NCBI RefSeq assembly: GCF_054482595.1
Contig: NZ_CM137008.1
DNA: 64,000 nt
Direction: 5' to 3' (one strand)
The translations under genes were made by a program, and so were the position numbers. Numbering within the stretch: the stretch's first letter is position 1; every line of letters starts with the position of its first letter. Below the pieces are notes generated by a model. The model saw only the letters and a program-made list of their open reading frames with translations. It did not search any database and was not told the origin of the DNA. Below, one piece after another: positions 59,901 through 64,000 of the stretch.

Positions 59901-60398
59901 ATGACTGACAGTGAACTGATGCAGTTAAGCGAACAGGTTGGGCAGGCGCTGAAAGCCCGTGGCGCAACCGTAACAACTGCTGAGTCTTGTACCGGCGGTT
60001 GGGTAGCGAAAGTGATTACCGATATTGCCGGCAGTTCCGCCTGGTTTGAACGCGGATTTGTCACCTACAGTAACGAAGCGAAAGCGCAAATGATCGGCGT
60101 ACGCGAAGAGACGCTGGCGCAGCATGGCGCGGTGAGCGAACCCGTCGTGGTGGAAATGGCGATAGGCGCACTGAAAGCGGCTCGTGCTGATTACGCCGTG
60201 TCTATTAGTGGTATCGCCGGGCCGGATGGCGGCAGTGAAGAGAAGCCTGTCGGCACCGTCTGGTTTGCTTTTGCCACTGCCCGCGGTGAAGGCATTACCC
60301 GGCGGGAATGCTTCAGCGGCGACCGTGATGCGGTGCGTCGTCAGGCTACTGCGTATGCATTGCAGACCTTGTGGCAACAATTTCTACAAAACACTTGA
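59901..60398 (+). CDS. pncC: NMN amidohydrolase, CinA C-terminal-domain family (165 aa)
   Basis: MTDSELMQLSEQVGQALKARGATVTTAESCTGGW... Confidence 0.9.
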   Translation: MTDSELMQLSEQVGQALKARGATVTTAESCTGGWVAKVITDIAGSSAWFERGFVTYSNEAKAQMIGVREETLAQHGAVSEPVVVEMAIGALKAARADYAVSISGIAGPDGGSEEKPVGTVWFAFATARGEGITRRECFSGDRDAVRRQATAYALQTLWQQFLQNT

Positions 60399-61539
<1,141 letters not shown>

Positions 61540-61540
61540 T

Positions 61541-61730
61541 CGTTCGTTATTGATGATAATAGATAATGTGTGCACGGACGGTCCCCTCGCCCCTTTGGGG
61601 AGAGGGTTAGGGTGAGGGGAACAGGCCAGCACTGGCGTGAAAAATTACTCTCACCTCGATCCTCTAACGAATTGGGCCTGCGGGAACATTCTGCACACTC
61701 ATTGACTATTAAATCTGTTTATCAGCAAAA
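61541..61730. other. Extra ~190-bp segment between recA stop and the recA terminator, containing a GC-rich imperfect palindrome (61582-61620); possible small intergenic repeat or MITE-like insertion
   Basis: recA stop to recX ATG is 242 bp here versus ~70 bp as I recall for K-12; palindrome TCCCCTCGCCCC-TTT-GGGGAGAGGG then TTAGGGTGAGGGGA. Confidence 0.5.
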
Positions 61731-61733
61731 CCT

Positions 61734-61763
61734 GGGTCGCATCTGCGGCCCTTTTGCTTTTTT
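61734..61763 (+). terminator. Hairpin plus T-tract between recA and recX (recA terminator/attenuator)
   Basis: GGGTCGC-ATCT-GCGGCCC followed by TTTTGCTTTTTT. Confidence 0.8.
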
Positions 61764-61781
61764 AAGTTGTAAGGATATGCC

Positions 61782-62282
61782 ATGACAGAATCAACGTCCC
61801 GTCGCCCGGCATATGCTCGCCTGTTGGATCGTGCGGTACGCATTCTGGCGGTGCGCGATCACAGTGAGCAAGAACTGCGACGTAAACTCGCGGCACCGAT
61901 TATGGGCAAAAATGGCCCGGAAGAGATTGATGCCACGGAAGAAGATTACGAGCGCGTTATTGCCTGGTGCCATGAACATGGCTATCTCGATGACAGCCGA
62001 TTTGTTGCGCGCTTTATCGCCAGCCGTAGCCGCAAAGGTTATGGACCTGCGCGTATTCGCCAGGAACTGAATCAGAAAGGTATTTCCCGCGAAGCGACAG
62101 AAAAAGCGATGCGTGAATGTGACATCGACTGGTGCGCACTGGCGCGCGATCAGGCGACGCGAAAATATGGTGAACCTTTGTCAACTGTCTTTTCAGAAAA
62201 AGTTAAGATCCAGCGTTTTCTGCTCTATCGTGGCTATCTGATGGAAGATATCCAGGATATTTGGCGAAATTTTGCCGACTGA
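61782..62282 (+). CDS. recX: RecA regulator RecX (166 aa)
   Basis: 166-aa ORF directly downstream of recA. Confidence 0.93.
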
Positions 62283-62409
62283 ACGCATACGGTATTTTAC
62301 TTCCCAGTCAAGAAAACTTATCTTATTCCCACTTTTCAGTTACCAGCCCGGCGGTTAAGACACGCTGGAGCTGGTGGCGATATTTCGTTAGCTTGATTTC
62401 AGGATAATT

Positions 62410-64000
62410 ATGAGCAAGAGCACCGCTGAGATCCGTCAGGCGTTTCTCGACTTTTTCCATAGTAAGGGACATCAGGTAGTTGCCAGCAGCTCCCTGGTAC
62501 CCCATAACGACCCAACTTTGTTGTTTACCAACGCCGGGATGAACCAGTTCAAGGATGTGTTCCTTGGGCTCGACAAGCGTAATTATTCCCGCGCTACCAC
62601 TTCCCAACGCTGTGTGCGTGCGGGTGGTAAACACAACGACCTGGAAAACGTCGGTTACACCGCGCGTCACCATACCTTCTTCGAAATGCTGGGCAACTTC
62701 AGCTTCGGCGACTATTTCAAACACGATGCCATTCAGTTTGCATGGGAACTGCTGACCAGCGAAAAATGGTTTGCCCTGCCGAAAGAGCGTCTGTGGGTTA
62801 CCGTCTATGAAAGCGACGACGAAGCCTACGAAATCTGGGAAAAAGAAGTCGGGATCCCGCGCGAACGTATTATTCGCATCGGCGATAACAAAGGTGCGCC
62901 ATACGCATCTGACAACTTCTGGCAGATGGGTGACACTGGTCCGTGCGGCCCGTGCACCGAAATCTTCTACGATCACGGCGACCACATTTGGGGTGGCCCT
63001 CCGGGAAGTCCGGAAGAAGACGGCGACCGCTACATTGAGATCTGGAACATCGTCTTCATGCAGTTCAACCGCCAGGCCGATGGCACGATGGAACCGCTGC
63101 CGAAGCCGTCTGTAGATACCGGTATGGGTCTGGAGCGTATTGCTGCGGTGCTGCAACACGTTAACTCTAACTATGACATCGACCTGTTCCGCACGTTGAT
63201 CCAGGCGGTAGCGAAAGTCACTGGCGCGACCGATCTTAGCAATAAATCGCTGCGCGTAATCGCTGACCACATTCGTTCTTGTGCGTTCCTGATCGCGGAT
63301 GGCGTAATGCCGTCCAATGAAAACCGTGGTTATGTACTGCGTCGTATCATTCGTCGCGCAGTGCGTCACGGTAATATGCTCGGCGCGAAAGAAACCTTCT
63401 TCTACAAACTGGTTGGTCCGCTGATCGACGTTATGGGCTCTGCGGGTGAAGACCTGAAACGCCAGCAGGCGCAGGTTGAGCAGGTGCTGAAGACTGAAGA
63501 AGAGCAGTTTGCTCGTACTCTGGAGCGCGGTCTGGCGTTGCTGGATGAAGAGCTGGCAAAACTTTCTGGTGATACGCTGGATGGTGAAACTGCTTTCCGT
63601 CTGTACGACACCTATGGCTTCCCGGTTGACCTGACGGCTGATGTTTGTCGTGAGCGCAACATCAAAGTTGACGAAGCTGGTTTTGAAGCTGCAATGGAAG
63701 AGCAGCGTCGTCGCGCGCGCGAAGCCAGCGGCTTTGGTGCCGATTACAACGCAATGATCCGTGTTGACAGTGCATCTGAATTTAAAGGCTATGACCATCT
63801 GGAACTGAACGGCAAAGTGACCGCGCTGTTTGTTGATGGTAAAGCGGTTGATGCCATCAATGCAGGCCAGGAAGCTGTGGTCGTGCTGGATCAAACGCCA
63901 TTCTATGCGGAATCCGGCGGTCAGGTTGGTGATAAAGGCGAACTGAAAGGCGCTAACTTCTCCTTCGTGGTGGAAGATACGCAGAAATACGGCCAGGCGA
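62410..64000 (+). CDS. alaS: Alanine--tRNA ligase, 5' portion (runs off the window end)
   Basis: Open frame from ATG at 62410 translating [51 protein letters not shown]...; not in the ORF track because no stop occurs within the window. Confidence 0.93.

Follow-up and report, generated by a model that had tools for sequence, protein, structure and literature searches.

The recA-recX spacer and its surroundings

In the window (the whole 64,000-nt stretch of DNA analysed here), 242 bp separate the recA stop codon TAA (61537-61539) from the recX ATG (61782). The features of this region are listed below.

60399-60418: LexA box 5' of recA, 16/20 to consensus
60478-61539, + strand: recA coding sequence, translation ending in ...GVAETNEDF and stop
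61540-61549, + strand: remnant of the old spacer, TCGTTCGTTA, diverged from K-12 TCGTCTTGTT (filled and empty alleles compared by hand)
61550-61733: whole BoxC doublet, a mosaic forming a long imperfect palindrome (end-to-end alignment with doublets at five other loci)
61570-61785, + strand: 71-aa open reading frame with GTG start, a repeat artefact made of repeat sequence that runs through the terminator into recX
61734-61763, + strand: recA terminator, which is also the recX attenuator, GGGTCGC-ATCT-GCGGCCC followed by TTTTGCTTTTTT (terminator scan)
61782-62282, + strand: recX coding sequence

The corresponding spacer is 68 bp in K-12 MG1655, 68 bp in a B strain and 67 bp in O157:H7. The net gain over the K-12 spacer is 174 bp, and the element as delimited here (61550-61733) is about 184 bp long. 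These measurements bear out much of the first-pass annotation, which had given the gap as 242 bp, had put the K-12 spacer at about 70 bp holding only the terminator, and had placed the attenuating terminator at 61734-61763. It had also described a GC-rich imperfect palindrome in the extra DNA, TCCCCTCGCCCC-TTT-GGGGAGAGGG and then TTAGGGTGAGGGG, which lies at 61583-61619, and the ends it gave to the extra segment (61541-61730) are only a few bases off those defined here.

The terminator consists of a hairpin at 61734-61751 and a T tract reaching to about 61763, and has the same sequence in short alleles. A terminator scan of 61400-61900 found this pre-existing hairpin as the sole terminator-like site; the hairpins of the BoxC element have no T tract, and the extra segment is thus not an intrinsic terminator. 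No sigma-70 promoter-like sites were found across 61400-61900, no LexA box was found within the recA-recX spacer, and an Rfam 15 covariance-model search of 60300-62500 gave 0 matches at E <= 1. When the window was shuffled 100 times, the 23-nt core was matched in none of the shuffled versions. Together with the fold statistics and the recurrence of the sequence in E. coli genomes, both given below, this places the segment outside what chance would produce.

Identification of the extra DNA as a BoxC repeat

On sequence grounds, the extra recA-recX DNA is a worn copy of the known BoxC repeat, a family published since 1992 whose name had been missed in the earlier annotation. The motif has been named BoxC (Bergler 1992), PIT for potential intrastrand triplex element (Hoyne & Maher 2000, 2002), TMECO, and HPG1/HPG2, the last described as a 'G-quadruplex-hairpin-duplex switch' (Kaplan et al. 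2016, PMC5100583). Its core of 34-37 nt reads CCCTC(G/T)CCC - loop - GGG(A/T)GAGGG - TTA or CCG - GGGTGAGGG (PMC4666352), and Table 1 of Holder et al. 2015 lists 23 'TMECO' motifs in K-12 (PMC4666352). This core is present at 61584-61619 (CCCTCGCCCCTTTGGGGAGAGGGTTAGGGTGAGGGG), where it is identical (36/36) to K-12 TMECO nos. 7, 11 and 15, type 'A mm', of that table. The A core on the + strand faces an inverted B-type partner on the - strand (61648-61684), whose place in the alignment is that of the B cores in five full doublets, so that the A/B pairing of the family is kept, though the partner agrees with its consensus at only 25 of 37 positions. When the recA-recX segment was compared by blastn with 5426 complete E. 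coli genomes, matches were found in 5399, the median genome having 15 such places, and none of the 60 matches listed falls under an annotated gene. The segment is therefore not a unique sequence outside any repeat family, and the other copies that the first-pass annotation had proposed to look for do exist, dispersed and intergenic as is typical of BoxC.

The likeness to BoxC/PIT/TMECO thus comprises the identical 36-nt core, the intergenic site, the pairing of the A core with an inverted B core (as at five K-12 loci), and presence or absence from strain to strain, which has been published for 62 loci in 56 strains (PMC4666352). The recA-recX copy differs in that its B partner is badly decayed, and in that the literature describes a core of 34-37 nt, whereas here we recognize a unit of about 180 bp with conserved spacer and termini. 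Within the HPG nomenclature, the window core is of HPG1 type, with loop TTA and four G tracts, and motifs paired across the two strands at a distance below 50 bp have been remarked there (PMC5100583). However, the regulatory or terminator-like role proposed in PMC5100583 is based on position statistics, and is not supported here. For an identical sequence, folding in vitro into an intrastrand triplex of the purine motif, or into a G-quadruplex/hairpin, has been published (PMC4666352; PMC5100583); in the window, the G-quadruplex motif is confirmed, as a sequence motif, at 61597-61619 on the mRNA-sense strand.

Other enterobacterial repeats resemble the element in architecture. Like ERIC/IRU, it is an imperfect palindrome of more than 100 bp in transcribed intergenic DNA, but the two have no sequence similarity, the best ungapped match to the ERIC core being 21/44. 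The resemblance to REP/BIME comprises two inverted GC-rich palindromic units with a short linker, AT-rich outer motifs common to both (GATGACAAA / TTTGT.A.CAA), and positions in 3' UTRs beside terminators. Nevertheless, the REP (PU) consensus is not in the window element (best ungapped match 18/34), and REP-derived Rfam families are absent from the window spacer, in contrast to the recA-recX alleles of E. albertii and Escherichia sp. MOD1-EC7003, where ES036 and naRNA4 are matched.

Polymorphism of BoxC among E. coli strains is already published. The recA-recX locus, in turn, is not named in Holder et al. 2015, and recA, recX and oraA are absent from the portion of its supplementary material covered by our search; a literature search for the recA-recX intergenic region in E. 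coli gave nothing relevant. The points that are new here are modest: the locus beside the recX attenuator, the frequency of 30%, the polarity of the change, and the anatomy of the full doublet of about 180 bp with its decayed partner.

Anatomy of the doublet and its decay

The recA-recX spacer was aligned with BoxC copies at gcvP-ygfF, yggL-yggN, yijF-gldA, fepB-entC, alx-sstT and other loci, and identities are given to the consensus of five full doublets. The full repeated unit is a doublet of about 175-185 bp made up of five parts, far longer than the published core, and the window copy keeps all five parts in register.

61550-61583, + strand: left AT-rich flank and terminus, 20/30 to consensus (over 61552-61583); pairs with the right flank in the predicted fold
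61584-61619, + strand: intact A-type core, CCCTCGCCCCTTTGGGGAGAGGGTTAGGGTGAGGGG, 36/36 to the family consensus
61620-61647, + strand: central spacer, AACAGGCCAGCACTGGCGTGAAAAATTA, 24/27 to the doublet consensus
61648-61684, - strand: decayed inverted B-type core with its G and C runs broken, 25/37 to consensus
61685-61733, + strand: right AT-rich flank and terminus (...CTGTTTATCAGCAAAACCT), adjoining the terminator stem, 26/43 to consensus

The AT-rich left terminus of the doublets has the consensus GATGACAAAGT.AAAAAG.GCTCGGACAGTC, the 28-nt spacer AACAGGCCAGCACTGG.GCGAATATTTA, and the right terminus, also AT-rich, ...TTTGTTAGCAATCTCA. In the window, the family terminus GATGACAAA is represented by GATGATAA at 61552-61559. 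At the other end, Escherichia sp. E1V33, which has a similar allele, ends in ...CAGCAATCTCT, nearer to the family consensus CAGCAATCTCA than the window end is.

The decay of the window copy is asymmetric. The A core is preserved at all 36 positions, while the B core and the flanks are at about 60-68%, and the B cores of the five reference doublets agree with the consensus at 32-36 of 37 positions, as compared to 25 in the window. Judged from its sequence, the window copy is an old, worn doublet that is pristine only in the A core and, largely, in the spacer. Since uniform neutral decay is not expected to leave 36/36 beside 60-68%, the A core must be either under constraint or subject to conversion with other copies. 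The 'extraordinary' identity of BoxC cores has been remarked by Holder et al. 2015 (PMC4666352).

Frequency of the long allele

With a 501-bp query spanning the spacer, and the long allele defined by a coverage of at least 80%, 1634 of the 5426 complete E. coli genomes (about 30%) carry the long allele. The remaining genomes, as sampled, carry a 326-327-bp short form of the query with flanks 99-99.7% identical. The possibility that most E. coli share the 242-bp spacing, which the first-pass annotation had named as a refutation, is thus set aside. The number of BoxC copies varies from 1 to 26 places per genome, with few in UTI89, ATCC 25922, Nissle and O145 and many in K-12-like strains, and the long recA-recX allele was found in both BoxC-poor (O145) and BoxC-rich backgrounds.

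The long allele of Escherichia sp. E1V33 is that of the window, down to the decay of the B core, apart from a handful of differences, and Escherichia sp. MOD1-EC7003 has a further-decayed BoxC remnant followed by five tandem units, each made of a terminator-like hairpin and a REP pair. The presence of the long allele or its remnant in these other Escherichia lineages indicates that the insertion is old. Either the long allele persists as a trans-lineage polymorphism, or recombination has carried it from one Escherichia lineage to another.

Predicted RNA structure and read-through into recX

By RNA fold prediction, the 184-nt element alone forms one long imperfect hairpin of -73.7 kcal/mol, which agrees with the earlier suggestion that the extra DNA could add structure to the recA-recX transcript. 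For a context of 281 nt, the fold has a z-score of -5.3, and 0 of 200 shuffled sequences reach its stability. In a 461-nt context, the terminator stem has a predicted base-pair probability of 1.0, without any anti-terminator fold predicted to compete with it; the stability of the local hairpin changes little overall (-19.0 vs -17.4 kcal/mol). The foot of the terminator is altered from AA...UU, with 9 contiguous bp, to CU...UU, with 7 bp, and the terminal AGCAAAA of the element can, by prediction, pair with UUUUGCU of the U tract. Since the insertion turns AA into CU at the stem foot and adds an A tract, an effect of the element on recX read-through is possible according to these models. RecX limits RecA filament extension, and Pagès and colleagues reportedly found in 2003 that recX is expressed by read-through of this terminator, which is reported to set much of its dosage in K-12.

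Taking these results together, we consider it probable that the extra DNA is an old, partly decayed BoxC doublet in an ancestral short spacer, polymorphic at about 30%, and most likely a near-neutral passenger. A BoxC doublet would have entered the ancestral spacer of about 68 bp within the genus Escherichia, directly 5' of the terminator stem, replacing about 15 bp. It would then be transcribed within the recA 3' UTR and the recA-recX read-through RNA, and its RNA would fold into a long imperfect hairpin within the transcript. Family identity, architecture, polymorphism, polarity and the intactness of the terminator are shown by the data above. The element itself is most likely a near-neutral passenger, as other members of the BoxC family are, and would shift attenuation or mRNA stability modestly at most. 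Possible routes for such a shift are the shortening of the contiguous terminator stem from 9 to 7 bp, the pairing of the upstream AGCAAAA with the U tract, and the long hairpin as a potential RNase III substrate. Three observations sit less well with this reading: the junctions are not clean (see below), the A core is perfect beside a decayed B core and flanks, and the changed stem foot and added A tract leave room for an effect on read-through.

Alternatively, the element may be a functional cis-acting RNA/DNA module that tunes RecX dosage, in which case long-allele strains would have a different RecX:RecA ratio. Acting along with the altered terminator foot, the hairpin or a G-quadruplex of the A core would affect attenuation or give rise to a processing site. 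Such a role is favored by the position inside the transcribed recA 3' UTR adjoining the attenuator, by the strength of the predicted structure (-73.7 kcal/mol, z = -5.3), by the G-rich A core with its G-quadruplex motif on the mRNA-sense strand, by the loss of two contiguous base pairs from the terminator stem along with the new AGCAAAA/UUUUGCU extension, and by an A core that stands at 36/36 amid decayed surroundings in an allele that is common (30%) and also occurs in another Escherichia lineage. Nevertheless, we regard this role as unlikely. The K-12 copies of the family are spread over every kind of gene context and favor no orientation, distance or class of gene (Holder 2015, PMC4666352), and PIT elements, according to the account of Hoyne & Maher 2002 given in PMC4666352, had no promoter or terminator activity in assays and no effect on RNA polymerase in vivo. 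Furthermore, the terminator stem keeps its probability of 1.0 with no rival anti-terminator fold predicted, the element is absent from 70% of E. coli and from nearly all other Enterobacteriaceae, and REP and ERIC sequences in the same slot elsewhere suggest a permissive site rather than a specific function.

Because a common natural allele makes the recA 3' UTR about 174 nt longer and alters the terminator foot, the locus offers a ready-made test of BoxC effects on expression. If there is no effect on expression, it is one more polymorphic BoxC site.

Junctions and the mode of insertion

The junctions were read by hand, since automatic alignment of filled and empty alleles misplaces the gap. 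The short allele reads TAATCGT-CTTGTTTGATACACAA-GGGTCGC and the long allele TAATCGT-TCGTTAT-(TGATGATAA ... CAGCAAAACCT)-GGGTCGC, with the element in parentheses. The long allele has thus lost 15-16 bp (CTTGTTTGATACACAA) of the short spacer to the element, and the right end of the element directly adjoins the terminator stem. When the alleles of E. coli, E1V33, MOD1-EC7003, E. albertii and other genera were compared, no target-site duplication could be defined; the duplication that the first-pass annotation had proposed to look for is not there between filled and empty alleles, where a replacement is seen with no direct repeat. Its description of the extra DNA as a small intergenic repeat or MITE therefore stands as to a dispersed enterobacterial intergenic repeat, but not as to a MITE that inserted cleanly, given the replaced 15-16 bp and the lack of a target-site duplication.

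A classical MITE would be a non-autonomous element mobilised by a transposase, moving by cut-and-paste via its terminal inverted repeats and making a target-site duplication. The BoxC element is like MITEs in being small, non-coding and dispersed, in the presence/absence polymorphism of its copies, and in its long terminal inverted repeats: 61550-61575 pairs with 61690-61728 in the predicted fold, and the termini GATGATAA...TTATCAGC are common to other copies. In addition, several copies adjoin terminator hairpins, which suggests a target preference. It differs from them at the junctions, where part of the target was replaced instead of duplicated. The flanks of the copies, at 60-67% to consensus, show no sign of recent transposition, and the alternation of BoxC doublets and REP pairs at two loci (see below) looks more like cassette replacement. 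To our knowledge, no parent insertion sequence, autonomous relative or cognate transposase exists for BoxC. A MITE origin seems to us improbable on balance, and Holder et al. 2015 found no association of the motif with mobile elements (PMC4666352). Since GATACACAA of the short spacer resembles the family terminus GATGACAAA, homology-assisted insertion is possible.

The slot as a repeat hot spot, and BoxC and REP at other loci

Small repeats of several kinds have entered the DNA that separates the recA stop from the terminator in Enterobacteriaceae, which makes this slot a hot spot, and all insertions lie upstream of the terminator. Besides BoxC in Escherichia, it holds an ERIC copy in Silvania confinis (L021:1306-1500) with remnants of ERIC in two further genomes, hairpins resembling REP in Salmonella and Citrobacter, and a REP pair with a duplicated, decayed terminator in E. 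albertii (L012:1263-1500). In MOD1-EC7003, the five tandem units extend the spacer to 1022 bp (L010:479-1500). The REP pairs of E. albertii and MOD1-EC7003 are those that match the REP-derived Rfam families ES036 and naRNA4.

BoxC doublets and REP pairs also replace each other at other loci. At yggL-yggN they are allelic alternatives between the same termini, GATGACAAA ... TTTGTTATC (L004:1466-1701 vs L087:167-349), and at yijF-gldA they alternate at the same position (L005:1381-1710 vs L088:162-435). The yijF-gldA REP-pair allele is without the terminal motifs, and only the bordering chromosomal TTTCAGA ... TCAAACTCCCGG is common to the two alleles. The BoxC allele is present in 65 of 5426 genomes at yggL-yggN and in 641 of 5426 at yijF-gldA. 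Downstream of gcvP, ygfF is absent in O157:H7 EDL933 and many other strains (L003:1435-1700 vs L101:820-1010); homology to K-12 stops at the gcvP terminator, exactly at the start of the BoxC doublet, and REP-containing sequence then follows. Bachellier and colleagues are said to have described boxC insertions at BIME sites in 1997.

Three alleles were found at alx-sstT (L091 vs L099, L100). K-12 has a full BoxC doublet; the second allele has a 75-bp deletion, by which the doublet is collapsed to a single CCCTCTCCCC/GGGGCGAGGG hairpin; and the third is an unrelated GC-rich replacement, with a region of 818 bp and no Rfam match. The collapse fits the 'palindrome effect' of Holder et al. (PMC4666352), who also reported that BoxC loci are hypervariable among strains (Holder 2015, PMC4666352). 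The 'single' BoxC sites of K-12 are truncated doublets or BoxC-REP chimeras: in the chimeras at fimH-gntP (L098), frlR-yhfS (L096) and pstB-pstA (L097), the A core with the left terminus is joined directly to a REP unit, and the truncated doublet at adk-hemH (L094) runs straight from its A core into the right terminus and a terminator. Many BoxC copies adjoin terminator hairpins. BoxC cores also occur on a few E. coli plasmids (28/70165 places, e.g. NZ_CP074792.1:1627-1664 and NZ_CP083871.1:17138-17178); the motif was not found on plasmids by Holder et al. (2015, PMC4666352).

The shared slots, the allelic alternation, the collapse at alx-sstT and the adjacency to terminators point to a kinship between BoxC doublets and BIMEs as cassettes. 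It is tempting to go further and to speculate that BoxC doublets are REPIN-like, sharing termini and terminator-side slots with REP doublets/BIMEs and being exchanged by the same machinery or by terminus-guided recombination, with the A core kept by conversion or selection, and that the recA-recX cassette alters the RecX:RecA ratio. As a whole, this extended proposal is a long shot. If it were true, the attenuator foot would have been remodelled and a long double-stranded RNA hairpin added at recA-recX, and the strains with the element, 30% of E. coli, would inherit a RecX:RecA ratio and an SOS set-point unlike those of the others.

Polarity of the insertion

The recX loci were taken from 79 species-representative genomes, and the spacer was measured in 78 Enterobacteriaceae species (L008-L086). 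The modal spacer among these 78 species is 66-72 bp, with about 20 nt from the recA stop to the conserved terminator. Because about 60 other Enterobacteriaceae species have a spacer of about 68 bp (66-72 bp), and because the K-12 spacer TAATCGTCTTGTTTGATACACAAGGGTCGC is collinear with Leclercia TAATCGGATGTCATATACAAGGGTCGC, we take the short form as ancestral and the element as an insertion. Within the genus, E. whittamii carries the short form. E. albertii has a K-12-like spacer and a decayed terminator copy, followed by its REP pair, which ends in ...TTTGTCAGCAAAACCT immediately before GGGTCGC, so that the right junction of this REP pair is the same as that of the window element.

The opposite polarity, in which the long form came first and was shortened by a deletion in K-12-type strains, would account for the long allele in E. 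coli, in E1V33 and, decayed, in MOD1-EC7003, and for the age of the copy as judged by the decay of its B core and flanks. The resemblance of GATACACAA in the short spacer to the family terminus GATGACAAA could then be that of a scar, and BoxC sites are prone to deletion, as in the 75-bp collapse at alx-sstT. Yet the 66-72-bp spacers of the other species, the collinearity of the K-12 and Leclercia spacers, the short form of E. whittamii, and the K-12-like spacer that lies upstream of E. albertii's own REP insertion make a deletion very unlikely. The K-12 short spacer as a deletion scar was rejected on this outgroup evidence, albeit not with certainty.

The 71-aa open reading frame

That the 71-aa open reading frame encodes a small protein is scarcely credible: it is open in both the window and E1V33, but it is built of repeat sequence, extends past the terminator into recX, starts at a GTG that no Shine-Dalgarno sequence precedes, had no match in an NCBIfam search, has no RefSeq annotation in 18 sampled element-carrying genomes, and is absent from 70% of E. 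coli, so that the first-pass annotation was right to doubt it as a gene. The practical value of the recA-recX element lies in annotation: it is not a gene, not an sRNA and most likely not a new regulator, and it may serve as a strain marker.
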